DNA of 64,000 nucleotides from Candidatus Doudnabacteria bacterium RIFCSPHIGHO2_01_FULL_46_14 (GCA_001779925.1 MFEK01000014.1:86983-150982), one strand, 5' to 3'; positions 1,011 through 38,725 are shown, counted from the first letter of the stretch. Program-made: numbers and translations. Notes: generated from the sequence alone by a model not told the origin.

Positions 1011-1011
1011 G

Positions 1012-1663: not shown

Positions 1664-1664
1664 T

Positions 1665-2593: not shown

Positions 2594-2997
2594 CGTTTCT
2601 TTTTAGCATATTTCTGAAAGCCGAACAGCCCGCCGATGAGCCCTCCTGCGATTATTACAATGATCCAAAAGATTGAGCTTTTGGAAGTTTCGTTTGCGGC
2701 TTTATCCGTAGACGTGATGGTTCTCGCCGTCTCTTCGTTTTGGGCTGAAACATTTCCGTCTTCAGAATCTTGCTGTCCTTCCTCATTTTGATTTTGCCGG
2801 CCACCGTCCGGCTGGTTACTGCCGATTGATTCCTTATAGTTCGGCTGGACATCTTGAGGCAGAGGCTGTAGCGGATCTGTTTGTGGTAAATTTCCCGGCA
2901 CCAAACGAGCGGCGCTCGCGCTGTGATATGCGGCTAATGAAAAAATCAGGACGAATGCGAGGACAATTTTGTGGTGTTTAGGCATAGTCAATGTCAA
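2590..2997 (-). CDS. Secreted protein with Sec signal peptide, acidic Gln/Asn-rich middle and C-terminal TM anchor plus KKKR tail
   Basis: Last gene of the minus-strand minor-pilin operon, with 4-nt overlaps between genes. Confidence 0.4.
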   Translation of the reverse strand: MTLTMPKHHKIVLAFVLIFSLAAYHSASAARLVPGNLPQTDPLQPLPQDVQPNYKESIGSNQPDGGRQNQNEEGQQDSEDGNVSAQNEETARTITSTDKAANETSKSSIFWIIVIIAGGLIGGLFGFQKYAKKKR

Positions 2998-14359: not shown

Positions 14360-14434
14360 GGTGCCCGTAGTTCAATGGTAGAACGCCGCTCTGTGGCAGC
14401 GGTCACGAGGGTCCGATTCCCTTCGGGCACCCCA
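14360..14434 (+). tRNA. tRNA-His (anticodon GTG) with G-1 and encoded CCA
   Basis: G-1 then acceptor GTGCCCG/CGGGCAC, anticodon loop CTGTGGC, T arm GAGGGTCCGATTCCCTT, discriminator C. Confidence 0.85.
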
Positions 14435-16572: not shown

Positions 16573-16600
16573 TGGCAGCGGTCACGAGGGTCCGATTCCC
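16573..16600 (+). repeat. 28-bp exact copy of the tRNA-His anticodon-to-T-arm segment (TGGCAGCGGTCACGAGGGTCCGATTCCC); direct repeat of 14391-14418
   Basis: Identical 28-mer read in both places; bounds a 2.1-kb islet. Confidence 0.55.
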
Positions 16601-18785: not shown

Positions 18786-20119
18786 TTGAGCGCTTCGATA
18801 TCAGCTTGGTATTGATTGGCCATTTTGACGACATTGTCGCCGTAAAATCTATATTTGGTATTAGTGCCACCCGAGAAATAACGCATGGCCGCGGCCCATT
18901 CGCCTCCCACAGTGCCCGCGCCTCCCGCGTGCAGTTTGATCGCTGAAGCGATAAACGCGTCCCGGATATCCCAGGGGTTCGCGGTTTTGCCGGTGATGGC
19001 CGCAACTTTATCTTTATAGCCCATCCATGTTGAAGGAATAAATTGCGCCGGCCCCATAGCCCCGCCCCAGCCGATTTGCTTGCCGTTCCGACGCATGGGA
19101 CAGGAAACAGGGGTAGTGTCCGGGTCCATTCCCAGATCTGCTGTGATTAGTTTAAATGGCTCCTGGTCGCGCTCGGGTTTCATGACCACTCGCCAGCTTT
19201 TTTCCGGCGGATCGCCTGGGCGGTTGCAGGTGCCCACGTTTTTTCCCAGGTTTGATTCCTGCGTTAGAATGGCGAGTAAAAAAGCTGCGCGCACGCCAGT
19301 CATGCCTGAGGCATATTTGGCGATTTCCACGGCTTCGCCAAAGGTGATTTGCGTGTTGACGCCGAGCAGCTGATAGAGGCGATTTCTAATTTCCCCGGCT
19401 TTCTTTTTACTGTCGCCCAGCACTGCCTGATATTCTGACTCGAGCCCGCGGGTTTGCTCGAGGATGGTTTTTTGTTCGGTTTCCGTGCCCACTAGCTGCT
19501 CTTTTTGCAGGCTTTGGATAGACAAAAGATTATTTGCCTCGTCATGCTGCTCGCCAAGCGCGGTTTTTGCAGCCGTCAATTTTTCGTTTGTCTGTTTGGC
19601 TGCGTCAAGCAACGTGCCCAAGCCTTCGGAAACCTGCGAATAATATTCCAGTTCGGAGAGCACGTCCGAAAGATTGTCGTGGGAGAGCACGATGTGCAGA
19701 AGGGGAGTGTTGTCCTGTTCGTACGCAAGCGCAATCAACTCTGCCAGTTGCTTTTTCAGTTCAGACATTTTTGCGGCGTTGCGCTCGATAGAATCTTCTG
19801 TGACAGCAATGCGGCTGCCAATCTCGCTGATGCGTACAGTAGTCGCGCGAATCTGTAGATTCAAAGCGGACTGCTGTTTTTTGAGGGCTTTGATTTTATT
19901 CTGCAGACTGTCTTTTTGTCCTTTGATTTCCGTGAGCTCGCGCTCGTACGCGCGGATCTGGTTTTCTATGTCCAGCAGCTGCCGCTCCAGATCCGTTTTT
20001 TCATCCTGGCCTGCTTGTCCGCCTTGGGTGGACTGTCCGCTCGCCGGGACAATACTGCTTCCTAGAATCACAGCAAGTAAAATCAGCCTGGCTATGTATT
20101 TTTTAGCTCGAGAATTCAT
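18779..20119 (-). CDS. Secreted lytic transglycosylase (SLT domain) with long N-terminal coiled coil (EnvC-like)
   Basis: Signal peptide, about 250 aa of coiled coil, C-terminal LTQESN..GPAQFIPSTW SLT motifs. Confidence 0.6.
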   Translation of the reverse strand: MNSRAKKYIARLILLAVILGSSIVPASGQSTQGGQAGQDEKTDLERQLLDIENQIRAYERELTEIKGQKDSLQNKIKALKKQQSALNLQIRATTVRISEIGSRIAVTEDSIERNAAKMSELKKQLAELIALAYEQDNTPLLHIVLSHDNLSDVLSELEYYSQVSEGLGTLLDAAKQTNEKLTAAKTALGEQHDEANNLLSIQSLQKEQLVGTETEQKTILEQTRGLESEYQAVLGDSKKKAGEIRNRLYQLLGVNTQITFGEAVEIAKYASGMTGVRAAFLLAILTQESNLGKNVGTCNRPGDPPEKSWRVVMKPERDQEPFKLITADLGMDPDTTPVSCPMRRNGKQIGWGGAMGPAQFIPSTWMGYKDKVAAITGKTANPWDIRDAFIASAIKLHAGGAGTVGGEWAAAMRYFSGGTNTKYRFYGDNVVKMANQYQADIEALNQ

Positions 20120-20524: not shown

Positions 20525-21532
20525 TTATCCGCAGACGGTTTCGATGAGGCGGGCGGTGACGCGGTAAGGGTCCATGTTCGCAGCTGGGCGGCGGTCCTCG
20601 AGATAGCCGCGGCCTAGCTGGGCGGTAAAGATCGGGATGCGGATCGAAGCACCGCGGTCTGATATGCCAAAGCGGAACTCGTCGATCTTTGCGGTTTCGT
20701 GCTTGCCGGTGAGGCGCAAATGATTGTCTGCGCCGTAGACCGCGATGTGCTCGTCACGCTTTAGGCCGAGTTTGTAGCAGGCTTCTTCCACAGCCCGCAT
20801 ACCGCCTTCGTCGCGCATGGCGCGCGTGGAGAAATTGGTGTGCGCTCCAGCGCCATTCCAATCCGCTGCGGGTTTGGGATGGAGCGACACAATGATGTCC
20901 ATCTCCTCGCCGATGCGCTGTAAGAGCCAGCGGGCCAACCACAGTTCGTCCGAGGCTTCCAAGGGACCCACCGGCCCGATTTGGAACTCCCACTGGCCAG
21001 GCATGACCTCGGCATTGATGCCAGCAAGAGTGAGACCGGCTTGCAGACAAGCTTCCATGTGCGCTTCCACGAGCCTGCGCCCGAAGATTTTGTCAGCGCC
21101 CACGCCGCAGTAGTACGGCCCCTGCGGACCAGGATAACCGTTTTCCGGAAAGCCCAGCGGCCGGTTGCCTTTGTACATAGTGTATTCCTGCTCAATGCCA
21201 AACCACGGCTCTTGATCTTCGTACTGTTTGGCGACTGCTCGCAAGCGCGCTCGGGCATTGCTTTCATGAGCTGTGCCGTCAGGACTGAGCACCTCGCACA
21301 TCACGAGAATATTGTCCTCGTTTCGGATCGGATCAGGGGTAAACCGCACTGGAACGAGGAGGCAATCGCTCTTGTGTCCTGTGGCCTGCTCTGTGCTCGA
21401 GCCGTCAAACCCCCAACCCGGAATTTCCGCGAGAGAATTAACTGGCCCAGGCAGGATTTTGGTTTTTGATCTCAAGGAAGCCGTGGGTTTGTAACCATCG
21501 AGCCATATATATTCGGCTTTGATTTTTGCCAT
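20525..21532 (-). CDS. glnII: Glutamine synthetase, short GSII-like form
   Basis: N-terminal AKIKAEYIWLDG and GS catalytic-domain motifs throughout. Confidence 0.7.
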   Translation of the reverse strand: MAKIKAEYIWLDGYKPTASLRSKTKILPGPVNSLAEIPGWGFDGSSTEQATGHKSDCLLVPVRFTPDPIRNEDNILVMCEVLSPDGTAHESNARARLRAVAKQYEDQEPWFGIEQEYTMYKGNRPLGFPENGYPGPQGPYYCGVGADKIFGRRLVEAHMEACLQAGLTLAGINAEVMPGQWEFQIGPVGPLEASDELWLARWLLQRIGEEMDIIVSLHPKPAADWNGAGAHTNFSTRAMRDEGGMRAVEEACYKLGLKRDEHIAVYGADNHLRLTGKHETAKIDEFRFGISDRGASIRIPIFTAQLGRGYLEDRRPAANMDPYRVTARLIETVCG

Positions 21533-21554
21533 ATTTTATTGGTTATTAATAATT

Positions 21555-21610
21555 AAAAAAACTGTCAAGATTTGCGTCCGCCAGAGGCGGATGAGTACAC
21601 AGTTTTTTTT
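21555..21610. terminator. Compound hairpin AAAAAAACTGT..GCGTCCGCCAGAGGCGGATG..ACAGTTTTTTTT
   Basis: Outer A/T arms plus inner GTCCGCC-N3-GGCGGA core, related to the 26664 and 38467 repeats. Confidence 0.4.
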
Positions 21611-21636
21611 AATCCTATTCTATTTTTTTTATTATA

Positions 21637-21912
21637 TCATGGCCGGGGTGTGGAAAACTCGTCCCGTCCAGTGCGAGGAGGTACGGGCGACGGGACGAGC
21701 ACTGGATCCCTCCCAATTTGCTCTCCAAACACATCAGGAGAGGTGCTTGTTGGGACGGTTTCTTCCGGTCTCTGAGACGGCGATGTCGCATTTTGACCAG
21801 GTTTGTCATCCTTTTTGGGCAGTTTTTTCCAGAGAAAAACGCCTCCGACAGCAAGGACGACCAGAAACACGACCCCCAAGATGATTTTCATGCGCGATTC
21901 CATAGGTTCCAT
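21637..21912 (-). CDS. Small secreted/membrane Pro-rich protein
   Basis: N-terminal hydrophobic helix; ORF only. Confidence 0.3.
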   Translation of the reverse strand: MEPMESRMKIILGVVFLVVLAVGGVFLWKKLPKKDDKPGQNATSPSQRPEETVPTSTSPDVFGEQIGRDPVLVPSPVPPRTGRDEFSTPRP

Positions 21913-22015
21913 AGGAATAGTTTAATTTGTTCAATTATACAACCATTTAGGCTCAGTGACCAAAAAAACCTAAAAATTTGTAACTACTTTTCAGGCTCAG
22001 AGTCAGAACTTATAG

Positions 22016-23704
22016 ATGACACTCAAAAAAATATATCTTAACCTGTTAATTGTAACGTTGGTCCTGGCCAACTTTATTTTTGCCCTGCCTGCGACGGCCG
22101 ATGAGAGTTCCCGCAAGATGGTGATTTATCGCGGGCAGGATGGAGCAAGCAGGATCGAGGTCATGGAGCTGACTGCGGAAGACGCTCGGGCGCTGGCACT
22201 CGACCCTCACGTGCTGCGCGTTGAAGATGACGCGACAGTATTTGCGACTGCACAAACTCTGCCTTGGGGCGTGGACCGCATTGATGCGGATAAAGCGCAA
22301 GATTTGAGTGTCGGCGCCGGAGTTCGAGTGGCGATACTTGATAGCGGCATAGACTTGGAGCACCCGGATCTTGCCGGCCGAATAAAAGGCGGTTACAATG
22401 CGCTCTCGCCAGGAGCTTCTTATGATGATGATTTCGGGCATGGCACACACGTTGCCGGCATTGTCGCTGGCCTGAGTAACAGCATCGGCATTGTGGGCGT
22501 GGCGCCTGCCGCGGATTTGTACGCCGTAAAAGTTTTGGATAGCACAGGCAGTGGATTTGTTTCAGATATTATTGCGGGCATTAACTGGGCCGCAGAAAAC
22601 GGCGTGCAAATAATCAATCTGAGTTTGGCAACGTCTTCTGACGTGCAGTCCTTGCACGATGCGGTATCCGCGGCAGTAAGCCGCGGGGTTCTGGTAGTGG
22701 TCGCGGCAGGAAACGATGGCGGGACCGTGAAATATCCGGCCGCGTATCCGGAAGCAATCGCCGTGGCGGCTCTGGACCAAACAGATAATCTTGCCAGCTG
22801 GTCATCGCGCGGGCCGGAAATCGATTTACTTGCTCCTGGGGCGAGTATTTATTCAACGTACGCAGGAGGGATTTATAAATTAATGCGCGGTACGTCCATG
22901 GCGGCTCCTCATGTTTCCGGAGCAGCCGCTTTGATTATGAGCAAGGGAAGCCTAAGCCCGGATGAGGTCAAAACGAAATTGTTAAATTCAGCAGAAACGC
23001 TTGTCTCAGACTATAAATTGGTTGATGCGGAAAATGCTGTGGCGCAAACCGCAAATCCACCACCTGTTGTTCCCTCAAATTCCACACCAGTTAATCAGCC
23101 TGTACAGACGGTTCCCAATCCTATTTCAGCGGCCCCGCCGCAAAGTTCTCCGACCCCTGTTGGACATGCGCCCGGTACCCTCATAAACATGAACGGTACA
23201 ATCTGGCGCATAACTGATGATGGCCAGGCAAGGCAAGGTTTTGACAGCTTGGAAAAATTTTTGTCGTATCGCTTCAAATTTACCATCGTCATGCGAGCCA
23301 ACACGGCCGACATGGCCAAACCTGATGCAGGCCTCATGTCGTGGAGCGACGGCGTACTTTTTAATGACAATGGCACTGTGTACCAGATCTCGGGCGGGCA
23401 AAAGCACGGCTTCACGTCGGCAGGGATTTTTTTGGCTCTTGGTTTTCGATTTGAAAATGTGATTTCCGGCCGGCCAAACGCGCCTACCGGTGCGCCGATT
23501 GTGGATCTTGATAAACATCTGCCGGGAACATTTGTGGTTGGCGCAGGGACCGTATATTTAGTGACGAGTTCCGGGTTGCGGGGTGTTCCAACTCCAGAGG
23601 TACTTTTCTCTTGGGGCGGAAACTGGTCGGAAATCGTGCCAGTCAAAAGCGCGGACCGGCAAGTTTTGACTGAAAATCTCACGCTTCGCATGGCCTCTTG
23701 GTAG
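22016..23704 (+). CDS. Secreted subtilisin-like serine protease (S8) with three C-terminal ~45-aa GTxY repeats
   Basis: Catalytic triad motifs ILDSGID, HGTHVAG and GTSMAAPHVSG. The C-terminal repeats are shared with the 39358 and 45244 proteins. Confidence 0.8.
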   Translation: MTLKKIYLNLLIVTLVLANFIFALPATADESSRKMVIYRGQDGASRIEVMELTAEDARALALDPHVLRVEDDATVFATAQTLPWGVDRIDADKAQDLSVGAGVRVAILDSGIDLEHPDLAGRIKGGYNALSPGASYDDDFGHGTHVAGIVAGLSNSIGIVGVAPAADLYAVKVLDSTGSGFVSDIIAGINWAAENGVQIINLSLATSSDVQSLHDAVSAAVSRGVLVVVAAGNDGGTVKYPAAYPEAIAVAALDQTDNLASWSSRGPEIDLLAPGASIYSTYAGGIYKLMRGTSMAAPHVSGAAALIMSKGSLSPDEVKTKLLNSAETLVSDYKLVDAENAVAQTANPPPVVPSNSTPVNQPVQTVPNPISAAPPQSSPTPVGHAPGTLINMNGTIWRITDDGQARQGFDSLEKFLSYRFKFTIVMRANTADMAKPDAGLMSWSDGVLFNDNGTVYQISGGQKHGFTSAGIFLALGFRFENVISGRPNAPTGAPIVDLDKHLPGTFVVGAGTVYLVTSSGLRGVPTPEVLFSWGGNWSEIVPVKSADRQVLTENLTLRMASW

Positions 23705-23736
23705 AAACTGATTTTTTGGCCTATAATTAAGCCAGA

Positions 23737-24279
23737 ATGTCGGTATTGAAACAAAAAATAAAATCAGGGTTTACTTTGATAGAGTTATTGGTGGTTATCG
23801 CCGTGATCGGTCTGCTGGCGAGCGTGATTTTGATTAGCTTGAACACCGCCCGGATCAAAGCCAGAGATAACCAGCGCAAGGCTACACTGAGGCAGCTAAA
23901 GACGGCTTTGGAACTCTATTTTGATGCTAATGGCAGTTACCCTGTAACTGTAGCCGGACCCTGGCCTTGGTGGTATTCGTCAGAGCCTGGTGACGCGGCA
24001 GCTAACGGCCCCGGCAACAACGGCGTGTGGATTTCAGGGCTGGTTCCTACCTATCTAGGATCTCTGCCGCGTGACCCACTCGGAGGAATCTCGCCTTACC
24101 CGGGTTGCGGCGGGACCTGGAAAAGATCGTACATATACACGAGTGATGCTACGAGTTATAAACTCGTCTCGCAGTGCTCTCCAGAAGGGGGGACAGTACT
24201 GTCCTCTGACGCTTTTTACGATCCGGTTCGCCCAGGTTATGCTTGGATGGTGTGTGCCGGCGTATCGTGTTCTTATTGA
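23737..24279 (+). CDS. Type IV pilin-like protein, array member 1
   Basis: Leader MSVLKQKIKSG then FTLIELLVVIAVIGLLASVILISLNTARIKARD; Cys pair near the C-terminus. Confidence 0.65.
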   Translation: MSVLKQKIKSGFTLIELLVVIAVIGLLASVILISLNTARIKARDNQRKATLRQLKTALELYFDANGSYPVTVAGPWPWWYSSEPGDAAANGPGNNGVWISGLVPTYLGSLPRDPLGGISPYPGCGGTWKRSYIYTSDATSYKLVSQCSPEGGTVLSSDAFYDPVRPGYAWMVCAGVSCSY

Positions 24280-24368
24280 AAGATATAGATTTGAGATCTA
24301 AAATCCAGTATTCTCGCTCATGGCAAGCAATGATGTAGCCTTACAAAGCAGGGGGAGGCTTTACCCTC

Positions 24369-24429
24369 TTAGAAATAGCCCGTCCCAAAGGCTCTTTGGG
24401 CGCACAAAAGCGCGGGCGCAATTTCAAAT
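24369..24429. mobile_element. 61-bp member of the CCCCGTTAGAAAT element family inserted at the pilin GFTL-coding site, flanked by 12-bp direct repeat GGCTTTACCCTC (24357-24368 and 24431-24442)
   Basis: Shares the 20-mer TTAGAAATAGCCCGTCCCAA with the holA copy. Direct repeats read from the sequence. Confidence 0.6.
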
Positions 24430-24904
24430 GGGCTTTACCCTCATCGAACTCCTCGTGGTCATCTCCGTCATCGGGCTTTTGGCCAGCGTGATTATGGTGG
24501 CTTTGAATTCAGCAAGAGTAAAAGCACGGGACATTAAAAGAATGTCCGATATAGGACAATTGCAGACGGCTTTGGAACTTTATTACGATAAATACAGTAT
24601 TTATCCGAACATCTCTCAATCCGCTGATTCTACCAATTGCGAAGATCGCACGCCGGCCCTAGTTTTTTATTTGGGTGAATTCATGTCATCTATTCCCCAC
24701 GACCCACAAGGTCCGCCCGCTGTTCCAAATGTTGATGCCGGTCCCGATCGCCATTGTTATTTTTATAATGTAAAAAAGAGCGGCCAGGGTTATGTAATTA
24801 TGGCTTACCAGGTCGAGCAGGTAACGACGGCTGCAAAAGGTGAAGGAGCGGCGTGTTATCCGGATGTGGTAAACGTTTATTGTAAAGGAATCAATTACCA
24901 ATAA
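24428..24904 (+). CDS. Type IV pilin-like protein, array member 2 (alternative upstream start 24320 reads through the inserted element)
   Basis: MGFTLIELLVVISVIGLLASVIMVALNSARVKARD; the ATG lies at the element/target junction. Confidence 0.55.
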   Translation: MGFTLIELLVVISVIGLLASVIMVALNSARVKARDIKRMSDIGQLQTALELYYDKYSIYPNISQSADSTNCEDRTPALVFYLGEFMSSIPHDPQGPPAVPNVDAGPDRHCYFYNVKKSGQGYVIMAYQVEQVTTAAKGEGAACYPDVVNVYCKGINYQ

Positions 24905-24905
24905 T

Positions 24906-25481
24906 ATGGATAATAAAAAGAATTTACAGGCCAATTCAGGCTTTATCCCCACACCACAACGCCGTTTGGTGTGGGGCTTTACCCTTATCGAACTTCTTGT
25001 GGTCATATCCGTGATCGGGTTGTTGGCGAGCGTGGTTATAATTTCCCTGAATTCATCAAGGATCAAAACCAGAGACACGGTGAGAAAACAAACTTTAAAG
25101 CAGCTGCAAAAGGCTTTGGAACTGTATTTTGACGCCAACGGCAATTATCCAATAGTGTCGCCTTACTATTCTTCAGAACCAGGAGACGTATGGCCTAACG
25201 GATCCGGCGGCAATGGCGACTGGATTCCCGGACTATCGCCGAATTATGTTTCCAAGCTGCCTCGCGACCCTCTTGGCGGCGCTTCCACGAATCCGGTTTG
25301 CACCCCAGGAGGTTATAAACGAGCTTATTATTACCGAAGCCTGGATGGCAAAGAGTACAAGCTTTATTCTCACTGTGGTCCCGAAGGTTCAGTAAATTCC
25401 GATGATCCTTTTTATGATCCGTCCCGGCCAACCTGGGCCTGGATGGTCTGCTCCGGCGAACCGGCGTGTTCAACGTGGTAA
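24906..25481 (+). CDS. Type IV pilin-like protein, array member 3, with a hairpin insertion in its leader
   Basis: Leader ...ANSGFIPTPQRRLVWG then FTLIELLVVISVIGLL. The insert CCCCACACCACAACGCCGTTTGGTGTGGGG (24947-24976) lies between GGCTTTATC and GGCTTTACCC. Confidence 0.6.
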   Translation: MDNKKNLQANSGFIPTPQRRLVWGFTLIELLVVISVIGLLASVVIISLNSSRIKTRDTVRKQTLKQLQKALELYFDANGNYPIVSPYYSSEPGDVWPNGSGGNGDWIPGLSPNYVSKLPRDPLGGASTNPVCTPGGYKRAYYYRSLDGKEYKLYSHCGPEGSVNSDDPFYDPSRPTWAWMVCSGEPACSTW

Positions 25482-25516
25482 AATAAAGTAAACATTTGAC
25501 AATTAACATTTAACAA

Positions 25517-26044
25517 TTGACAAAGAGCGCACAAATCAAAAGTCAAGGCTTTACCCTCATTGAGCTCCTCGTGGTCATTTCCCTCATCGGCTTGCTCGCG
25601 AGCGTGATTTTGGTCAGTTTAAATTCGTCGCGCGTTAAGGCCAGGGACACGGTGAGGAAGCAAACCCTTAGGCAGCTGCAAAAGGGTTTAGAATTTTACT
25701 ACAATCAAATTGGAAGTTATCCGGTAACTCCAGTTAACTGCTGCTCTTCGGAACCTGGCGACCCTTGGCATCCCCAGGATGACTGGATTCCCGGTTTGGA
25801 GCCTAGCTATATTTCTAAATTGCCTAGGGATCCTTTGGGTGGAATTTCGCCAATTTGCGCAGGACCCAGATATAGAAGTTATTTGTACCAAAGCGACAGC
25901 GACGGTAAAAACTATAAACTTTATGCTTATTGCAGTCCGGAAGGCGCTATGACTGACGACCCGTCCGATCCCTTTTACAGCCCAGGGGCTTGGTGGTATA
26001 CCTGGAGGGTCTGCGGCGGCACATCGGACTGCAATTCATGGTGA
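25517..26044 (+). CDS. Type IV pilin-like protein, array member 4
   Basis: TTG start; MTKSAQIKSQG then FTLIELLVVISLIGLLASVILVSLNSSRVKARD. Confidence 0.6.
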   Translation: MTKSAQIKSQGFTLIELLVVISLIGLLASVILVSLNSSRVKARDTVRKQTLRQLQKGLEFYYNQIGSYPVTPVNCCSSEPGDPWHPQDDWIPGLEPSYISKLPRDPLGGISPICAGPRYRSYLYQSDSDGKNYKLYAYCSPEGAMTDDPSDPFYSPGAWWYTWRVCGGTSDCNSW

Positions 26045-26055
26045 TAAATAGACTT

Positions 26056-26592
26056 ATGGAAAAAAACCAAAAAGCCTTTACCCTCATCGAACTCCTCGTC
26101 GTCATCGCCGTCATCGGTTTGCTGGCCAGCGTGGTTTTGGTGGCGATGAATAATTCACGGGCCAAGGCAAGGGATGCCAAACGGATCGCTGAAAAAAAAC
26201 AGGCGGTTACGGCGTTTAATTTATATTACAATGATAACGGCAAGTGGCCGCTAACCGTTTCTTCCTTTACACCCTCATCGAATTGTTTGGCGTCAAGTTC
26301 GGAAACTTGCTGGCTTGGCTCCAGAACAGGATTAGATTCACTTGTTAGCGCCCTTTCGCCGTATTTATCTTCTCTTCCGACAAACAATGTGCCAAGCGGT
26401 GTCCGGGCGTATAATCGGTTATTATATACAGACAATGCAAATGCCGGCGATATTGTCGCAGGCAGTCCCGCCGGAGCGTGGCTCATTTGGGTTCAGGAAA
26501 CCGGCATGACACCGGACAAGTGCGCAAGCAATATTATTTCAAACTATAGCGACGGCTATTTGTATTGCTATGAATTTTTGGGTCCGCCTTAG
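26056..26592 (+). CDS. Type IV pilin-like protein, array member 5 (Ala at the -1 cleavage position)
   Basis: MEKNQKA then FTLIELLVVIAVIGLLASVVLVAMNNSRAKARD. The upstream ORF extension to 25990 overlaps the previous gene and is unlikely. Confidence 0.55.
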   Translation: MEKNQKAFTLIELLVVIAVIGLLASVVLVAMNNSRAKARDAKRIAEKKQAVTAFNLYYNDNGKWPLTVSSFTPSSNCLASSSETCWLGSRTGLDSLVSALSPYLSSLPTNNVPSGVRAYNRLLYTDNANAGDIVAGSPAGAWLIWVQETGMTPDKCASNIISNYSDGYLYCYEFLGPP

Positions 26593-26623
26593 AAATATAT
26601 TTTGTATATTATAAAATAATTTT

Positions 26624-27262
26624 ATGAAGCGAAAAGGCTTTACCCTCATCAAGCTCCCCAGCTCTTCGTCCGCCTCTGGCGGACTACGGCGGGCCAATGC
26701 TTTCACATTGATAGAACTCCTCGTGGTCATTTCCGTCATCGGCCTGCTCGCCAGTATAGTTTTGGTGAGTTTGAACAGCGCGCGGGCCAAGGCAAGGGAT
26801 GCCAAGCGCTTAACCGACTTAGCCCAAATTAAGAAAGCTCTGGAATTGTATTATGACGATAACGGCAGTTATCCTAACACTAATTACAATGTCGGACCCG
26901 GGCAGTGGCGCACCCAATGCGCTTCCTCGGATTCATGGGTTACGCCAAACCTGCCGGCTGACCAGGTGATTAAAGATATTTATAATGGCAAAGGACTGGC
27001 TCCAACTTATATTAGCCCCTTCCCTTCCGACCCCCTCTTGAACGCAGCTTCGAGTCAAAATTGTTATAATTATACTTCCAATGGGACTGACTACAAGTTA
27101 ATAGATACAGCTTTAACAGATATGACCCTTGCCCAAATCAACCAGTATCCAAGCTATAAAGACCCTGCCAGAAACGACACAACCAATACAGCCCCGTGCA
27201 CCTCATTTGCTGATTATTCACTGACTTTGGCCATTTGGTCTCCTGGGGCGCAGTGCTGGTAA
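26624..27262 (+). CDS. Type IV pilin-like protein, array member 6, with a hairpin-repeat insertion in its leader
   Basis: MKRKGFTLIKLPSSSSASGGLRRANA then FTLIELLVVISVIGLL. The insert (26664-26693) has the GTCCGCCTCTGGCGGAC hairpin between GCTTTACCCTCATC and GCTTTCACATTGAT. Confidence 0.6.
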   Translation: MKRKGFTLIKLPSSSSASGGLRRANAFTLIELLVVISVIGLLASIVLVSLNSARAKARDAKRLTDLAQIKKALELYYDDNGSYPNTNYNVGPGQWRTQCASSDSWVTPNLPADQVIKDIYNGKGLAPTYISPFPSDPLLNAASSQNCYNYTSNGTDYKLIDTALTDMTLAQINQYPSYKDPARNDTTNTAPCTSFADYSLTLAIWSPGAQCW

Positions 27263-27278
27263 TTTTTTATTAAATTTT

Positions 27279-27755
27279 ATGAAGCGAAAAGGCTTTACCC
27301 TAGTTGAACTCCTCGTGGTCATCGCCGTGATTGGGCTTTTGGCCAGCGTGATTTTGGTGAGTTTGAACAGCGCGCGTGTGAAAGCCAGAGATGCTAGACG
27401 AAAAGCGGACATGTATCAATTGGGACTGGCAATACAGCTTTACTATGACGCTAACGGCACATTCCCGCCCAGCGTTTTAGATACAATTGACAACACAACA
27501 ACAAAAACCGGAGATTGGCCGCCTGCCTTTAAGACGGAGCTTGCCCCTTTTTTGTCCAAGCTTCCCCTGGACCCACTTTCAAATAGCGCTTTCCCTTTTT
27601 ACGGAGCAGAGAGGATGAATCGGGCTCCGGATGCGAATTGTAATGGGCAATTTGTCATCTGGATGTATTTTGAAGGAACGACTGATCCTGATTATGGTAA
27701 ATATATTTGCGGTTGGGCGCCGCTCCATTATATTAAGTTATTAGGCAAGTATTAA
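27279..27755 (+). CDS. Type IV pilin-like protein, array member 7
   Basis: MKRKG then FTLVELLVVIAVIGLLASVILVSLNSARVKARD. Confidence 0.65.
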   Translation: MKRKGFTLVELLVVIAVIGLLASVILVSLNSARVKARDARRKADMYQLGLAIQLYYDANGTFPPSVLDTIDNTTTKTGDWPPAFKTELAPFLSKLPLDPLSNSAFPFYGAERMNRAPDANCNGQFVIWMYFEGTTDPDYGKYICGWAPLHYIKLLGKY

Positions 27756-27767
27756 CTGCCCGAATAA

Positions 27768-28280
27768 ATGAAACAAAAAGGCTTAACCTTTACCCTTCGA
27801 CTACGCTCAGGGTTCACCCTCATCGAACTCCTCGTGGTTATTTCCGTCATCGGCCTGCTGGCGAGCGTGATTCTTATTTCTTTGAACAGCGCGCGGGCCA
27901 AGGCAAGGGATGCCAAACGCATCGCTGATATTCGGCAAATTCAAAAAGCTTTGGAACTCTACTATGATCAAAATAATGAATATCCGCGTTATGACGGCGG
28001 GGGAATAGTGACTTGCGGTGGTGCTTGGGCAACTACGGATGACGCGCCCACATTTATGCCCTGCTGGAATGATTTGCAAACAAAATTATCCCCGTATATA
28101 AATAGATTGCCGGTTGAAATTCTTTGGACATCCAGCGGTTATCATTATAAAACTCAAAACAGCGGACAAGGTTATTATTTGTTAATGTATCCTGAAAATA
28201 ACTCGATGTATCGGACTGATTCGCCTTGTTATGATAGTCAAGGTTCTCTTTGGTGGTGTACAGGGAATAATTGGGAATAA
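27768..28280 (+). CDS. Type IV pilin-like protein, array member 8, with a short leader insertion
   Basis: MKQKGLTFTLRLRSG then FTLIELLVVISVIGLL; duplicated GGCTTAACCTTTACCCTT / GGGTTCACCCTC. Confidence 0.6.
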   Translation: MKQKGLTFTLRLRSGFTLIELLVVISVIGLLASVILISLNSARAKARDAKRIADIRQIQKALELYYDQNNEYPRYDGGGIVTCGGAWATTDDAPTFMPCWNDLQTKLSPYINRLPVEILWTSSGYHYKTQNSGQGYYLLMYPENNSMYRTDSPCYDSQGSLWWCTGNNWE

Positions 28281-28301
28281 GGTAAGAAAAAATTAATAGA
28301 A

Positions 28302-28856
28302 ATGAGACCTCCACAAATACAAATCAAATATTCTTCTAAAGGCTTTACCCTCATCGAACTCCTGGTCGTTATTTCCGTTATCGGTCTGCTTGCTAGTGTG
28401 GTTATGATTGCTCTGAATTCCGCCCGTTTAAAGGCCAGGAACACCAAACGGCTTGCTGACATCAGGCAGTTGACCACAGCATTCAATCTTGGCCTTGATA
28501 GCAGCAGTAGCGGTTCCCTGCCTGCAAGCGGAGGTAATAATTGGGTATGCGTCAGCGCCAGTTGCTATGGGTCATGGGCGACAAGCTACCCCGCTAACGC
28601 TGGTGTTGATGCTTTTTTGGCGCCATATATTGCCAGCAAACCAACAGCTCCGCTTGGCAGTTATGCGGGAGCGGGCGGATATTTGTATATTTTTGGCTAC
28701 AACGGGGGGGCTGTGTCCCCGTATGACGGCAGTATTCTCGCAGGCACGTATTTGGACGCCCTCATGGAACCGCCTCTCACCCCAGGTATTTGCGGTTCAG
28801 GCAGAATATGGGACGCCACCTCAAACTACATTGAGTGCATGTTTAAGCTTGATTAA
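28302..28856 (+). CDS. Type IV pilin-like protein, array member 9
   Basis: MRPPQIQIKYSSKG then FTLIELLVVISVIGLLASVVMIALNSARLKARN. Confidence 0.65.
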   Translation: MRPPQIQIKYSSKGFTLIELLVVISVIGLLASVVMIALNSARLKARNTKRLADIRQLTTAFNLGLDSSSSGSLPASGGNNWVCVSASCYGSWATSYPANAGVDAFLAPYIASKPTAPLGSYAGAGGYLYIFGYNGGAVSPYDGSILAGTYLDALMEPPLTPGICGSGRIWDATSNYIECMFKLD

Positions 28857-29378
28857 ATGAAACAAAAAGGGTTTACCCTCATTGAACTCCTCGTGGTCAT
28901 TGCCGTCATCGGCTTGCTCGCCAGCGTGGTTTTGATGGCTTTGAATGCGACTCGAGTCAAAGCGAGGAATAGCAGGAGAGCTGCGGATATTCAACAGCTG
29001 GTTAAGGCTTTTAACTTAGCTGCCGATGCCGACGGCGGCACATTTCCCACTACTGGAATTAATCAATATTTTTGTATAAGCAGTACTTGCAGCGGCATAT
29101 GGCCTACCAACCCCAATGTTATAGTTGATAGCGCTTTGGCTCCCTATATAAAAAAGCCGACCGATCCCGTAGATTCTACCAGAGCCGGCGGGGGCTACAT
29201 TTATAACAGCAACTGGCCTTCCGGCAATGTTAGCCCCTATGACGGCACTGCCTGGGTAGGGGGTGTTTATTTGGCTTACTTATTGGAACCCGTTTCCATT
29301 ATCTCGGGCGTATGCGCACCGGGAAAAATTTGGATGGTTGACCAGACTTACATTGAGTGTTTGTTAAAGCTTGATTGA
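28857..29378 (+). CDS. Type IV pilin-like protein, array member 10
   Basis: MKQKG then FTLIELLVVIAVIGLLASVVLMALNATRVKARN. C-terminal region similar to member 9 (...YIECMFKLD versus YIECLLKLD). Confidence 0.65.
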   Translation: MKQKGFTLIELLVVIAVIGLLASVVLMALNATRVKARNSRRAADIQQLVKAFNLAADADGGTFPTTGINQYFCISSTCSGIWPTNPNVIVDSALAPYIKKPTDPVDSTRAGGGYIYNSNWPSGNVSPYDGTAWVGGVYLAYLLEPVSIISGVCAPGKIWMVDQTYIECLLKLD

Positions 29379-29868
29379 AAAAACCATGAAATCTAAATAT
29401 AAATTATCAACCGGTTTTACTTTAATCGAACTCCTCGTGGTCATCGCTGTTATCGGGCTTTTGGCGAGCGTGATTATGGTGAGTTTAAATAGTGCCAAGG
29501 CCAAGGCGCGGGATACTAAACGTAAAGCGGATTTAAAACAGGTCGCAACTGCCTTAAATCTTTATTATGACGAAAATAACTTTTTACCGGGAAATGCGTC
29601 CGGTTGGTGCTCTCTTTTTATCCACGGGGCCACTGGCTTTACGGGCAACGCCATGCCAGCTCCGCTTCTGACTAAGTACATGTCAAGCATTCCTTACGAC
29701 CCTATATGGGCTGGGGACGGGAACCCAAACAGCTACACGGCAGACTATCTGTATTATAATGTTGACAACACGAATGGTAAGTTTACTCTTTGCGCTAACT
29801 TTGAACAGGACCCGGGCAGTCTAACTGTCACGTGCGGCACTAATTATAAGTATTGCATAAGCCAATAA
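29371..29868 (+). CDS. Type IV pilin-like protein, array member 11
   Basis: MIEKTMKSKYKLSTG then FTLIELLVVIAVIGLLASVIMVSLNSAKAKARD. Confidence 0.65.
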   Translation: MIEKTMKSKYKLSTGFTLIELLVVIAVIGLLASVIMVSLNSAKAKARDTKRKADLKQVATALNLYYDENNFLPGNASGWCSLFIHGATGFTGNAMPAPLLTKYMSSIPYDPIWAGDGNPNSYTADYLYYNVDNTNGKFTLCANFEQDPGSLTVTCGTNYKYCISQ

Positions 29869-29906
29869 TTTTAAAAGGGCAAAAAATTTTAAAGTATAAT
29901 AAATTG

Positions 29907-30425
29907 ATGAACAAAATCAGACTTCAAACTGGCTTTACCTCCATCCCTCGGCCTTGTTCGTTCTTCGACAGGCTCAGAACGGCCTTGGGCTTGCCGAAAC
30001 GGTCGGGATTTACATTAATCGAACTCCTCGTGGTCATCGCTGTTATCGGGCTTTTGGCGAGCGTGATTATGGTGAGTTTAAATAGTGCCAGGGCCAAGGC
30101 GAGGGACGCGAGAAGAAAAGCGGATACAAAACAGTTGGGCACTGCTTTGGAACTATTTTACGATGCCAATAATTATTACCCTTACACGGGTTTGCCGGAT
30201 GGAAACAGCGCCGCAATGAGCTATTTAACGACTTATCTAACTCCGGCTTACCTGGCAAAAATCCCTGATGATCCTACCTGCCCGACGGTTTGCTATTCTT
30301 ACGTCCAGCTCGGAAGCGGCAAAGATTACGCGCTTTACGTGCCTCTGCAAGACAACCAAAATCCTTGCGTCATCAGGACTCCGGGCGCAACAGCTGTTTG
30401 GGCAGGTGTTCCTGGCTGTAACTAA
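29907..30425 (+). CDS. Type IV pilin-like protein, array member 12, with a ~62-bp insertion in its leader
   Basis: MNKIRLQTGFTSIPRPCSFFDRLRTALGLPKRSG then FTLIELLVVIAVIGLL. The insert (29953-30014) lies between GGCTTTACCTCC and GGGATTTACATTAATC. Confidence 0.55.
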   Translation: MNKIRLQTGFTSIPRPCSFFDRLRTALGLPKRSGFTLIELLVVIAVIGLLASVIMVSLNSARAKARDARRKADTKQLGTALELFYDANNYYPYTGLPDGNSAAMSYLTTYLTPAYLAKIPDDPTCPTVCYSYVQLGSGKDYALYVPLQDNQNPCVIRTPGATAVWAGVPGCN

Positions 30426-30472
30426 TCAAGTTTGCTCTTCTGCGCGGCAGAAAATAATGCTATAGTTCAGAC

Positions 30473-30823
30473 ATGATTATGGAAAGCGAAATTGGCAAGG
30501 TTCCCCAGGGGGAAACCGCAAGCCCGATAGAAAAGCTACAGCGCGAATACGCTATAAAATGGCTGGCGGCAATGATAGCCGCTTCAGAAGAACGAAGCTT
30601 ATCGAAGAATGACGAAGGCAGACATGAGGCCAAACAACGCTGGTCCGGGCTGCAAACTCAAGTTAAGGACGCTACTGATAAAATCAGGTCGTTACACGGT
30701 GCGGAAGCGGAAAAAATTTTTACCGAGGCCATGACAAAATATAATCTGGAAGGCAATCCGGATCCGCAAATTGCTGCAGAGGCCGAGAAACTTTATAACG
30801 AATGGGGAAAAACTAATGGGTGA
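30473..30823 (+). CDS. Hypothetical helical protein (116 aa)
   Basis: ORF; coupled to the next ORF by ATGGGTGA. Confidence 0.3.
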   Translation: MIMESEIGKVPQGETASPIEKLQREYAIKWLAAMIAASEERSLSKNDEGRHEAKQRWSGLQTQVKDATDKIRSLHGAEAEKIFTEAMTKYNLEGNPDPQIAAEAEKLYNEWGKTNG

Positions 30824-31058
30824 AAGAGGTGAAACTATTTTTCGTTTCAGCACGGAGAATCCCATGCTCCCGAAGGGGCATGGCGAGAAAAAAGCAGCGC
30901 GTAAAAAAAGGTCTGTACCATCCGCCGCGCTAAGAAATCTTGAGGTAGACCAGATTGATATTGACCGCCATGGCGGGAAACACGCCGTAGGGAGCGGTAT
31001 TCCAGAAATCGACCAGATTGATATCGATCGAGAGAAAAAACGCCAGAAAAAGATTTAG
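30816..31058 (+). CDS. Hypothetical basic protein with internal duplication (VDQIDIDRHGG / IDQIDIDREKK)
   Basis: ORF with internal start at 30816 overlapping the upstream stop. Confidence 0.3.
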   Translation: MGERGETIFRFSTENPMLPKGHGEKKAARKKRSVPSAALRNLEVDQIDIDRHGGKHAVGSGIPEIDQIDIDREKKRQKKI

Positions 31059-31738
31059 CTTAGTTCCAGAGCTTTTAGAAATTTGTTCAATTCATCGCCT
31101 TTCAGTTCATGCGACTGGCCTTGTGACAGGCCAGTTAGTTTTATATTGATAATCCGCTCCCGTTTCAGGTCGCGGACTGTATAGCCAAAAGCATCGCACA
31201 TACGCCGGATCTGGTGATGACGACCTTCGGTGAGAATGATTTTGAATTTGTTCTCGCCGAGCTTGGAGACTTTGGCGGGACGAGTGGTGTAGTCATCAAT
31301 TGTTATTCCTTTTCGGCAGTGCTCCAAAAATCCCGGACGCAGTTTTTTATCTACAGTTACGGTATATTCTTTTTCGTGCTCGTATTTGGGGTTGAGCATG
31401 CGGTCAGTAACCCGACCGTCATTGGTGAGCAAGATGAGTCCGTGCGAATTTTTATCCAAACGGCCGATCGGAAACGTGTCCCGGATTTTAATGCTGTGAG
31501 TGTCAATTCCCGTTGGTTTATGATATGCTAAATATATTCGCTGATCAGCGATTTTTTTAACAGTCGGCGAATCAACCTCAACCTTGTCGCCTTCATTTAT
31601 TTTCTGGCCAACGAGCGCGCGCTTGCCGTTGACTGTGACCAAGCCTTCGGCGATGAGTTTGTCAGCCATGCGACGGGAGCAATATTGTTTTTCTGATAGA
31701 TATTTATTTATTCTAATTGGATGATCCATACTTAACAT
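31055..31738 (-). CDS. rRNA pseudouridine synthase, RsuA/RluB family (S4 domain plus catalytic domain)
   Basis: S4 motif INKYLSEKQYCSRRMADKLI; catalytic YLAYHKPTGIDTHS and LDKNSHGLILLTNDG. Confidence 0.75.
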   Translation of the reverse strand: MLSMDHPIRINKYLSEKQYCSRRMADKLIAEGLVTVNGKRALVGQKINEGDKVEVDSPTVKKIADQRIYLAYHKPTGIDTHSIKIRDTFPIGRLDKNSHGLILLTNDGRVTDRMLNPKYEHEKEYTVTVDKKLRPGFLEHCRKGITIDDYTTRPAKVSKLGENKFKIILTEGRHHQIRRMCDAFGYTVRDLKRERIINIKLTGLSQGQSHELKGDELNKFLKALELS

Positions 31739-31776
31739 TGTAGCCCTTCGGCAAGCTCAGGGCAAAAATTCATTTC

Positions 31777-32730
31777 ATGAATTTTTGGAAACAATTAAAA
31801 AAACCAATAATGGCTCTCGCGCCCATGGCCAATGTTACGGATGCTGCATTTCGGCAGATAATTGCCAAATACGGCAAGCCGGACGTCATGTTTACCGAGT
31901 TCACCTCATGCGATGGGCTTGTGTCTGCCGGTCGCGGCAAACTCCTTGTAGATTTGAAATTCACGCCCGCAGAGCACCCGATTGTTGCCCAGTTTTTTGG
32001 TTCAAAGCCGGAAAATTTTTTCAACTGCGCTCAGCTTGCCCAAGAATTAAAATTCGACGGGATTGATATTAACATGGGCTGTCCGGACCGAGCCGTGGAA
32101 AGGCAGGGCGCCGGAGCAGCGCTAATCAAGACACCCGAGCTTGCCCAAGAAATAATTGCCGAAACGAAACGCGGTGCTCCGGATTTGCCGGTATCAGTCA
32201 AAACCCGCCTTGGTTATAATAAAAATATTTTGGAAGAATGGCTGCCAAAGCTTCTCGAAACCGGGCTTGCGGCAATAACCATTCACGCCAGAACCAGAAA
32301 AGAAATGTCGGACGTGGACGCGCACTGGGATCAGGTTAAACGAGCGGTAGAAATAACCGATGATATGGGAAAAGAAACCTTGATTCTTGGTAACGGGGAT
32401 ATAGGGGATATCGGAGAAGCCAAAGTCAAAGTCCAGGAAACGGGCTGCGACGGGGTAATGATCGGCCGAGGCATTTTCGGCAATCCCTGGCTGTTTAGCA
32501 GCGAGCGCGATTATAAAACCATAACACTAGAAGAAAAACTCGCTGTGATGCTTGAGCACACTTTTCTTTTTGAGAAGATGTTCAAGGACATAAAAAGCTT
32601 TGATGTCATGAAGAAGCACTACAAAGCTTACGTGGCCGGTTTTGACGGCGCAAAAGAACTGAGGGTCAAGCTTATGGAAGCAAAAAGCGCAGAAGAGGTT
32701 TCCCAAGTGATCACGCCGTACTTGGGGTGA
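31777..32730 (+). CDS. dus: tRNA-dihydrouridine synthase
   Basis: MALAPMANVTDAAFRQI...GIDINMGCP...TIHARTRKE Dus signatures. Confidence 0.8.
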   Translation: MNFWKQLKKPIMALAPMANVTDAAFRQIIAKYGKPDVMFTEFTSCDGLVSAGRGKLLVDLKFTPAEHPIVAQFFGSKPENFFNCAQLAQELKFDGIDINMGCPDRAVERQGAGAALIKTPELAQEIIAETKRGAPDLPVSVKTRLGYNKNILEEWLPKLLETGLAAITIHARTRKEMSDVDAHWDQVKRAVEITDDMGKETLILGNGDIGDIGEAKVKVQETGCDGVMIGRGIFGNPWLFSSERDYKTITLEEKLAVMLEHTFLFEKMFKDIKSFDVMKKHYKAYVAGFDGAKELRVKLMEAKSAEEVSQVITPYLG

Positions 32731-37750: not shown

Positions 37751-38725
37751 TTATTTTCTAAAACGCCCGTGAAACTTGGCGTGGATTTCTTTTAATCTTT
37801 TATTGGTTAAATGCGTATAGATTTGCGTAGTCGTGATGGATGCGTGTCCCAGGATTTCCTGGACTGACCTGAGGTCTGCGCCGGCCTGCAGGAGATCCGT
37901 GGCCATTGTATGCCTGAGTGTATGCGGGGAAATTTTTATAGTAATCCCTGCCAGCAGAGCGTATTTTTTCATAAGGCGCTGGATCGTGCGAGCGGTGAGC
38001 GGTGAAACATCCGAGATGTCAATTTTATTATTTGAATGTCTTACGAAAAGGGCAGGGGAGTTATCCGATCTTTTGCTGAGATAATTTTTGAGCGCGCTGC
38101 GGGCAGCTGGCGACAAAAATACAACACGGATTTTATCGCCTTTCCCTTTGACTGAGAACTCGTCTTTTTTCAGGTTGACCTGTGCGCGTTTCAGGCCCGC
38201 GCATTCAGCAACGCGAAGGCCGGTGGAAAATAAAATCTCGAGAATCGCGCGGTCGCGCAAGCGCCGAAGTTCGTCTTTTTCCTGGTTGGTTGCGCGGAAG
38301 AGTTTTTCCAAATCCTCGGATTCAAGAAAGCTTACCTGCCTTGACGGCGTTTTTGGAAGTTCCAGTTTTTCGGCGGCAAGGCTTTTGACGTCGCGTCGGG
38401 CTAAATATTTGAGGAAAGAGCGAAGAGCAATAATGTGGTAGGTTTGCGTGGCGAGTTTCAGTTCTCCGCCTTCGTCCGCCTGAGGCGGACTTCGGCGGAC
38501 TTGTCGGCGATTCAATGCGAGGCGAAAGCTTCTTACCAAATCCAAATCAACGCCAGCAGGGGATGATACTCTTCGAGATTCCGCAAATTCGCAAAATCGC
38601 CGTAAATATAAATCATAATTGCGGATGGTCAGGCGAGAGCGGTTTTTTTCCACCTCTAGGTGCTCTAGGAATTGCTGTTTGTATTTTTTTAGTTCCGTTT
38701 GTTTCATATTGTGCGACGTACACAA
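37751..38725 (-). CDS. xerC: Tyrosine recombinase XerC/XerD-like carrying an in-frame hairpin-repeat insertion
   Basis: C-terminal HTLRHTMATDLLQAGADLRSVQEILGHASITTTQIYTHL with catalytic Tyr. Extra RRQVRRSPPQADEGGE segment encoded by the repeat at 38467-38500. Confidence 0.7.
   Translation of the reverse strand: MCTSHNMKQTELKKYKQQFLEHLEVEKNRSRLTIRNYDLYLRRFCEFAESRRVSSPAGVDLDLVRSFRLALNRRQVRRSPPQADEGGELKLATQTYHIIALRSFLKYLARRDVKSLAAEKLELPKTPSRQVSFLESEDLEKLFRATNQEKDELRRLRDRAILEILFSTGLRVAECAGLKRAQVNLKKDEFSVKGKGDKIRVVFLSPAARSALKNYLSKRSDNSPALFVRHSNNKIDISDVSPLTARTIQRLMKKYALLAGITIKISPHTLRHTMATDLLQAGADLRSVQEILGHASITTTQIYTHLTNKRLKEIHAKFHGRFRK
38467..38500. repeat. Hairpin repeat CCGCCTTCGTCCGCCTGAGGCGGACTTCGGCGGAC, homologous to 26664-26693
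   Basis: CTTCGTCCGCCTNNGGCGGACTNCGGCGG shared with the pilin-leader copy. Confidence 0.55.

Follow-up and report, generated by a model that had tools for sequence, protein, structure and literature searches.

In Neisseria, silent pilin copies that lack a promoter and the conserved 5' part donate their variable 3' part, and a guanine quadruplex (G4) motif initiates the transfer. The Patescibacteria or Candidate Phyla Radiation (CPR), for which a genome of roughly a megabase is typical, are thought to rely on pili for finding and holding hosts and for the uptake of DNA. A pilin family (fam000005) is enriched across the CPR (Meheust et al. 2019, PMC6744442), conserved multi-pilin clusters have been described in Paceibacteria UBA5633 (Kuroda et al. 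2022, PMC9763046), and Nanosynbacter lyticus TM7x carries 12 pilins in 4 loci (PMC11623550). In Haloferax volcanii, six pilins with a conserved H-domain are each able to form pili (Esquivel et al. 2013, reviewed in PMC4371748). Here we describe a tandem array of twelve pilin genes at positions 23737-30425 of a 64,000-nucleotide stretch of DNA (the window; MFEK01000014.1:86983-150982) from Candidatus Doudnabacteria bacterium RIFCSPHIGHO2_01_FULL_46_14, a patescibacterial metagenome-assembled genome from the Rifle aquifer. The reading favoured here, with a probability of about 0.68, is that the locus is a co-oriented set of alternative major-type pilins that changes through slow birth-and-death and, now and then, through conversion of a shared 5' module, without programmed switching.

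The array consists of 12 open reading frames (ORFs) of 158-212 residues on the plus strand, each complete with its own start codon and leader (Table 1). In the NCBI annotation, the upstream subtilase and the pilins carry the tags A2751_03525 to 03585, and the pilins appear as hypothetical proteins. The PF07963 (N_methyl) profile matched all 12 products, 11 of them above the gathering score and the product of gene 3 with 20.8 against 21.2. In all 12, position -1 is G or A, +1 is F and +5 is E, the F being followed by TL(I/V)ELLVVI(A/S)(V/L)IGLLAS. When the products were inspected for the features of a prepilin (a basic leader, G/A at -1, F/M at +1, E5 and a hydrophobic stretch of about 20 residues), each of these was found in all 12. 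Two cysteines lie in the last ~40 residues of every product and, by sequence count, at least four cysteines are present in 11 of the 12. AlphaFold models (pLDDT 93-94) showed the classic pilin fold, in which a long alpha1 helix at the N-terminus packs against a head made of beta-sheet. The products are securely identified as pilins and, as read from their sequences, the twelve genes are complete, separately translatable genes for major-type (type IVa / GspG-like) prepilins. The original prediction of twelve same-strand type IV pilin paralogues with the G/A then FTLIELLVVI N-terminus and, in most, a terminal pair of cysteines, downstream of a secreted subtilase, was borne out on each of these points.

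The possibility was considered that the products are GspG, the major pseudopilin of type II secretion. The PF08334 (T2SSG) profile barely reached its cut-off with gene 6 (21.8 bits against 21), fell below it with genes 8 and 12 and gave no match with the others, and the identity was rejected. The UniRef names "GspG C-terminal domain-containing" given to array proteins are automatic, and no GspD secretin or GspC-M genes were seen within the window. A PilQ-type secretin has not been reported in the CPR (Meheust et al., PMC6744442).

The intergenic gaps measure 0-40 nucleotides (nt) if plausible start codons are assumed. Gaps of this size on one strand suggest an operon, and the twelve genes are probably co-transcribed, as judged from this layout. 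The promoter-like sites listed in Table 1 are candidates only, because the scan gave 16 sites in the region where 13 +/- 4 were expected, which is not above chance; promoter and terminator counts did not exceed the shuffled expectation. A search against Rfam returned four tRNAs only and no RNA family within the array.

PilA1-PilA6 of H. volcanii provide the best functional analogy. These pilins likewise combine a near-identical hydrophobic N-domain with different C-domains and are unlinked to the biosynthesis genes, and all three features were found in the array. The H. volcanii pilins differ in being archaeal and processed by PibD, in being encoded by six genes outside one tandem array and in having been tested experimentally; every one of them is able to act as the major pilin, with subsets used by condition, whereas the array is known from its genes alone. 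The multi-pilin loci of other Patescibacteria have in common with the array the protein family, the N-terminus, the monoderm-type machinery (PilM/N) and a presumed role in host contact, as well as a much greater divergence of the pilin C-domains than of the machinery genes. They differ in that here 12 major-type genes form one unbroken run away from the assembly genes, and the pilins of TM7x are, in contrast, distributed among four loci, with clear minor pilins among them. The heteropolymeric PilE1/PilE2 pilus of Streptococcus sanguinis (PDB 8pfb) differs in having two genes, which are closely related paralogues.

A metagenome scan with the array alignment yielded 80 loci, and the 36 loci of at least 8 kb, five separately fetched ones included, were analysed. 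A single pilin was present in 25 of them, two in 7, and 4-9 tandem pilins in 4. The run of twelve is longer than any in these 36 loci; the next is nine, directly after pilC (L040). A shorter contig (L098; 4.7 kb, 1-4746) from the same sample and a different organism carries at least seven tandem pilins (54-67% identical), one of which resembles genes 9 and 10 and three of which resemble genes 1, 3 and 4; their order is different, and a BrnT/BrnA toxin-antitoxin pair is inserted. Twelve genes in one run is the upper end of an already known class of CPR multi-pilin loci.

The C-terminal domains (C-domains) all contain the motif L.P.Y...LP.DP. Those of genes 1, 3 and 4 (subfamily 1/3/4) are 50-60% identical, with 60% between genes 1 and 3, and the figure is 45% for genes 9 and 10 (subfamily 9/10), of which gene 5 is a distant relative. 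Gene 3 has 1024 homologues at E<=1e-5, the best foreign ones being full-length with 55-66% identity and belonging to Parcubacteria, Nomurabacteria, Portnoybacteria, Paceibacter and other Doudnabacteria. Gene 9 gave 48,795 library matches with E<1e-3 and, against 1.84 billion cluster representatives, 43 full-length matches at E<1e-30 with 45-61% identity. Both subfamilies have hundreds of full-length homologues in Patescibacteria at 45-66% identity. The nearest relative of the C-domain was foreign (47-71% identity, in other Patescibacteria) rather than a paralogue in 7 of the 12 genes (Table 1); these are genes 1, 3, 4, 5, 6, 9 and 10, to which the comparison was applied. Since the nearest relatives are foreign, the subfamilies would have split before the organisms diverged and would have been constrained since. 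The C-domains had been described as unrelated and hypervariable. The first term fits genes 11 and 12 (E=0.43) but not subfamilies 1/3/4 and 9/10 or gene 5, and the second is contradicted by the foreign relatives of seven genes and the hundreds of conserved full-length homologues.

The shared 5' module was compared at the DNA level over 150 nt from F+1. The mean pairwise identity is 66% (range 57-86%), and high column conservation is confined to the first ~60-75 nt. Exact shared runs are 8-26 nt long in most pairs, 36 nt in genes 6 and 8 and 76 nt in genes 11 and 12. Genes 11 and 12 have in common a tract in which 91 of 93 nt are identical (Table 1), beyond which the match falls to 48/72 (67%) downstream and 8/30 upstream. 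A Sawyer-type run test was carried out on 115 polymorphic sites in the first 165 nt with 2000 permutations. The run in genes 11 and 12, with 43 concordant polymorphic sites, was reached in 0/2000 permutations (p<0.0005), and the 6/8 run of 27 such sites had a global p of about 0.009. The tract of gene 6 overlaps runs shared with genes 5 and 7, and the start regions of genes 6 and 7 are 88% identical over 40 nt. DNA conservation had originally been claimed for about 150 nt and holds for the first part of the module, but not for its whole length; the suggestion that the module can act as a substrate for recombination gained support from the 11/12 tract and the significant 6/8 tract.

Synonymous codons gave a further indication of exchange. 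At positions 1-25, same-amino-acid codons are identical in 53% of cases within the array, against 30% predicted by the codon usage of the window. A within-gene synonymous shuffle of codons 1-25 gave 0.375 +/- 0.011 against the observed 0.534, and the value was 31% between the window and foreign modules and 53% among foreign modules sharing one locus. At codons 25-55 the excess is gone (39 vs 36%). Codon bias as the source of the similarity was ruled out by the shuffle and the between-genome control (0.31). The signatures of gene conversion are confined to the 5' module. This evidence, which is real but limited, has the pattern of local concerted evolution through short-tract gene conversion, and such concerted evolution appears, from the foreign modules, to be general for CPR pilin arrays. 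The N-terminus FTLIELLVV(I/V)(A/S)I begins nearly all of 120 foreign homologues among the matches listed, which indicates that proteins of the CPR pilin family universally begin with the N-terminal module and that it is not peculiar to this locus. Relic fragments of the 5' module were found at six places. An out-of-frame relic (CCTTTACACCCTCATCGAATTG...) was observed in the C-terminal half of gene 5, at 26262-26295.

These data raise the possibility of active pilin variation, in which recombination between 5' modules would swap, delete or duplicate C-terminal cassettes and change the expressed pilin. The mosaic of genes 11 and 12, near-identical and then unrelated, speaks for it, as do the 6/8 tract, the synonymous similarity in excess of both the null and the between-genome value, the relic fragments, and an order and copy number unlike those of the L098 array. 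However, most gene pairs offer only their short exact runs to recombination, and recombination between direct repeats on one strand would irreversibly delete genes. There are no silent cassettes, because every copy is complete with its own start codon and leader, and an expression site plus silent copies is not present. No G4 motif (G3+N1-7 x4) was found on either strand of 21001-32000, and the inverted repeats in the array amount to three weak pairs, none of which flanks gene segments. The nearest integrase-type gene, which is XerC-like and the only recombinase-type gene among the scanned ORFs, lies 7 kb downstream. The conservation of C-domains across genomes also argues against such variation. 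As for direct repeats, the families in the array consist of the 5' modules, gene starts and paralogous stretches.

Three known switching systems were considered and rejected. The pilE/pilS system of Neisseria resembles the array in having multiple pilin copies and non-reciprocal transfer (gene conversion), but here all 12 copies have a start codon, a leader and a full N-terminus, conversion affects the conserved 5' module, and the G4 motif is absent. A shufflon of the R64 PilV/Rci type was dismissed on the lack of inverted sites flanking segments, the single orientation of the genes and the distance to the integrase. For the target of a diversity-generating retroelement, no template/variable repeat layout was found at any gene 3' end; no reverse transcriptase domain was found among the scanned ORFs, the small ORFs not all having been scanned.

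The stability of the array was evaluated in independent assemblies. Ten contigs from at least seven samples, recognised by the same subtilase or gene 8, are all collinear with the window and contain no structural variant, and the three that span the whole array show 0 differences across 6.7 kb. Within the 22 kb compared, the only differences were single-nucleotide polymorphisms (SNPs) at 16797, 18887-19000 and 33269 and a 6-nt indel at 15476-15481, in genes near the array. Three SNPs fall within 7 nt in a coiled-coil/transglycosylase-like gene, and the indel lies in an ice-binding-like gene. Proteins grouped in the same 90% cluster are at most 1-3 residues apart. No relative between about 66% and 100% identity was present in a 5.8-billion-protein collection. 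For the upstream subtilase, there was no protein relative between 65% and 100%, the 65% match being on a 3.6-kb contig, and a scan of genome contigs returned only unrelated subtilases of Paenibacillus, Sporosarcina and archaea. The comparison of contigs excludes common rearrangements, not rare ones. The original prediction held that invariance across many related strains, together with uniform expression of all copies, would argue against a variation system; invariance was found in the ten collinear and three identical contigs, but as a test it is weak because all of them sample one clonal population at one site. Taken with the collinear contigs, the lack of switching machinery makes active variation quite improbable. 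The description of the array as a diversification locus stands as far as the paralogues with divergent surface domains and the 5' conversion are concerned, but not with respect to hypervariability, silent cassettes or switch machinery.

In three other Patescibacteria contigs, a homologue of the 1/3/4 type is the sole pilin at the locus. It lies between fusA and tuf in L016 (10001-10519) and after secY-adk-map in L014 (10001-10507), adjoining ribosomal-protein and translation-factor genes in both genomes, and these neighbours suggest strong expression as a major pilin. The ancestral major pilin is probably represented by the 1/3/4 family. It could be supposed that one true major pilin of this promoter-proximal type forms the fibre of the present organism and that the eleven others are low-abundance accessory or minor subunits. 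The position of genes 1, 3 and 4 at the promoter-proximal end is consistent with this arrangement, as are the lone homologues and the weak PF08334 matches of genes 6, 8 and 12. Nevertheless, all twelve products have the full major-type N-terminus with E5 and a similar size, recognisable minor-type pilins with divergent N-termini sit elsewhere, next to pilMNO, and the 9/10 family, too, is found widely as a conserved, full-length pilin. A single major pilin is considered unlikely on these grounds, and the roles that the others would then have, as tip, priming, DNA-binding or secretion pseudopilus components, are unlikely to the same degree.

Genes 2, 3, 6, 8 and 12 have unusually long leaders of 15-52 residues which contain a pseudo-site. 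In these five genes and in the minor pilin at 4390-5052 (minus strand), the insert has the same layout: the cleavage-site DNA appears first as a partly degenerate copy (GGNTTTACC..., 7-15 nt), followed by a GC-rich hairpin of 21-77 nt and then by the real site (Table 1). An upstream pseudo G-F-T site was found in 10 of 256 CPR pilins sampled (~4%). Approximately 60-70 nt of the gene 2 insert are homologous to holA at 8082-8145, with an exact core of 20 nt, and the long ORF of gene 2 and the holA copy read the insert in the same frame (RNSPSQ..GRT). The hairpin of gene 3 is also present in the minor pilin at 4991-5010 (minus strand) and in a contig of another organism (L100, 484-528), where 29/30 nt are identical by eye (~97%) and the pilin protein is only 60% identical. 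The equivalent position in a third organism (L101, 3714-3752) is occupied by a different palindrome, ACGTTCA...TGAACGT, between 9-nt direct repeats. The palindrome of gene 6, GTCCGCCNNNGGCGGAC, recurs in frame in the integrase (38461-38505, minus strand), upstream of glnA (21576-21592) and at 20017-20033, giving 4 matches against 0.01 expected. The RLRSG leader insert of gene 8 occurs also in a foreign pilin (P0245). None of the element cores AATAGCCCGTCCCAA, GTCCGCCNNNGGCGGAC and CCACAACGNNGTTTG was found in ~90 loci from other genomes.

The inserts might have been plain relics of deleted pilin genes. This interpretation was partly dropped because the inserts of genes 2 and 6 have copies in non-pilin genes and because the gene 3 hairpin is nearly unchanged in an organism with a much less similar pilin. 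The inserts could be small mobile palindromic elements that prefer, or are tolerated at, cleavage-site DNA, or they could have been left behind where the 5' module was repeatedly broken and repaired. It is conceivable, if doubtful, that the cleavage-site DNA GGNTTTACC is a preferred target or breakage point for GC-rich palindromic elements and, together with conversion, the engine of array turnover. If this were true, insertion at GGNTTTACC would duplicate the site and generate long-leader prepilins with a pseudo-site, and the same elements would land in frame in holA and the integrase. The palindromic elements of Rickettsia are in-frame selfish DNA in protein-coding genes. The elements described here are similar in being short GC-rich palindromes in frame in unrelated genes (pilin leaders, holA, integrase), but they are much shorter (~30-75 nt), number 2-4 copies per type in 64 kb and are known from sequence alone. 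The hairpin inserts with a duplicated cleavage site are the only part of the locus that may be new biology.

The sequences, the folds and the pattern of evolution are what the data show; how the products are processed, assembled, co-expressed and used is inferred. Each product would be inserted in the membrane and cleaved by a prepilin peptidase between G/A and F, and the type IV pilus machinery would polymerise the products via the shared hydrophobic alpha1 helix. PilM and PilN of the window would serve as the assembly platform for the array pilins, with PilB/C/D encoded elsewhere. Because the alpha1 helix is the same in all, the machine could build pili from any of the twelve, which might be used alone or mixed to vary the pilus surface presented in attachment, in DNA uptake or in other contacts. 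The N-terminal module would be mainly the universal, strongly selected core of CPR pilins, further homogenised in the array by short-tract conversion, and the C-domains would be old conserved subfamilies in an array that changes by slow duplication, loss and occasional recombination.

Several points weigh against this reading of a slowly evolving set of alternative major pilins. The relic module fragments and the leader inserts make for unusually active 5' ends, which a purely static view leaves unexplained, and the C-domains of genes 2, 7, 8, 11 and 12 may be lineage-specific or fast-evolving. Co-transcription, the use of all twelve genes and the formation of mixed pili are each a matter of inference. 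Among the scanned ORFs of the window, none was seen that encodes PilB, PilC, PilT or PilD. Moreover, the identical contigs represent one clonal population from one site, and short-read consensus sequences are blind to minority rearrangements.

The remaining pilus genes of the window lie at its beginning (Table 1). The pilMN genes and the minor pilins are ~17-23 kb from the array, with housekeeping genes and tRNAs between. The array had been placed near pilMNO and minor pilins; all of them are indeed in the same window, but at this distance, and PilO is assigned by position only. The 598-residue minor-type protein, which has a prepilin N-terminus, could be a tip pilin or a large pilin of the adhesin type beside pilMN. 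Elsewhere in the window, the 3' end of tRNA-His (14394-14421) is repeated exactly over 28 nt 2.2 kb downstream (16573-16600), and the two copies bracket an ice-binding-like protein, a 157-aa ORF and a helix-turn-helix (HTH) gene; the arrangement resembles a small integrated island between its attachment sites. The gene of a 1922-aa PKD/CARDB surface protein contains a direct repeat of 107 nt (42602-42708 / 44402-44508, 93% identical), the sequence of which is Pro/Thr-rich and linker-like.

Table 1. Features of the pilin array and its surroundings in the 64,000-nt window. A slash in a leader marks the predicted cleavage site; percentages are identities of the C-domain to the nearest foreign sequence and to paralogues; aa, amino acids.
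Feature	Position	Strand	Remarks
Pilin gene 1	23737..24279	+	180 aa; leader MSVLKQKIKSG/F; subfamily 1/3/4; A2751_03530; PF07963 E=1.7e-07; C-domain 64% to foreign P0123 vs 60% best paralogue
Pilin gene 2	24320..24904	+	194 aa from ATG 24320; real site MG/FTLIELL at 24431; long leader with hairpin insert
Pilin gene 3	24906..25481	+	191 aa; leader MDNKKNLQANSGFIPTPQRRLVWG/F; subfamily 1/3/4; C-domain 62% foreign vs 60% best paralogue
Pilin gene 4	25517..26044	+	175 aa; TTG start; subfamily 1/3/4; C-domain 71% to foreign P0126/L097 vs 50% paralogues 1 and 3
Pilin gene 5	26056..26592	+	178 aa from ATG 26056; MEKNQKA/F; distant member of 9/10 group; C-domain 49% to foreign P0347 vs 29% gene 9
Pilin gene 6	26624..27262	+	212 aa; 26-aa leader MKRKGFTLIKLPSSSSASGGLRRANA/F; C-domain 59% to foreign P0241 vs 41% best paralogue
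Pilin gene 7	27279..27755	+	158 aa; MKRKG/FTLVELL
Pilin gene 8	27768..28280	+	170 aa; leader MKQKGLTFTLRLRSG/F
Pilin gene 9	28302..28856	+	184 aa; subfamily 9/10; C-domain 53% foreign vs 45% best paralogue
Pilin gene 10	28857..29378	+	173 aa; MKQKG/F; subfamily 9/10; begins right after gene 9 stop codon; C-domain 47% foreign vs 45% best paralogue
Pilin gene 11	29386..29868	+	160 aa from ATG 29386
Pilin gene 12	29907..30425	+	172 aa from ATG 29907; leader MNKIRLQTGFTSIPRPCSFFDRLRTALGLPKRSG/F
Candidate promoter-like site upstream of gene 1	23698..23727	+	TTGGTA-18-TATAAT
Further candidate promoter-like sites	24276-24304 (gene 2), 26590-26617 (gene 6), 29871-29900 (gene 12)	+	sequence scan
Gene-conversion tract, gene 11	29416..29508	+	partner 30009-30101 in gene 12
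Gene-conversion tract, gene 12	30009..30101	+	partner 29416-29508 in gene 11
Shorter shared tract, gene 6	26762..26806	+	partner 27873-27917 in gene 8; contains the 36-nt exact run
Gene 2 leader insert	24357..24433	+	first copy GGCTTTACCCTC, then GC-rich hairpin element, then real GGCTTTACCCTC
Gene 3 leader insert	24938..24977	+	GGCTTTA, hairpin CCCCACACCA-N10-TGGTGTGGGG, then GGCTTTACC
Gene 6 leader insert	26636..26701	+	pseudo-site GGCTTTACCCTCATC, then palindrome GTCCGCCTCTGGCGGAC
Gene 8 leader insert	27783-27812	+	duplicated cleavage-site sequence and hairpin
Gene 12 leader insert	29929..30008	+	pseudo-site GGCTTTACCTCCATC, then GC-rich hairpin
Minor pilin insert	4985-5035	-	duplicated cleavage-site sequence and hairpin
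Secreted-type subtilase, Peptidase_S8 (PF00082)	22016-23704		directly upstream of array
PilM	84-1010	+	PF11104 E=3e-37
PilN	1091-1663	+	PF05137 E=7e-07
PilO-position ORF	1665-2270	+	no Pfam match
Minor-type pilin	4390-5052	-	220 aa; divergent N-terminus
Minor-type pilin	5049-6845	-	598 aa; divergent N-terminus; CarboxypepD_reg domain

Twelve complete major-type pilins in a genome of the roughly megabase type amount to a heavy investment in pilus surface diversity. An attachment repertoire in a CPR bacterium of the episymbiotic type, as had been proposed, is plausible in view of pilin paralogues with divergent surface domains. The view of this diversity is nevertheless to be corrected: it would consist of inherited, conserved subfamilies, some of them common to other Patescibacteria, and not of a hypervariable switch.

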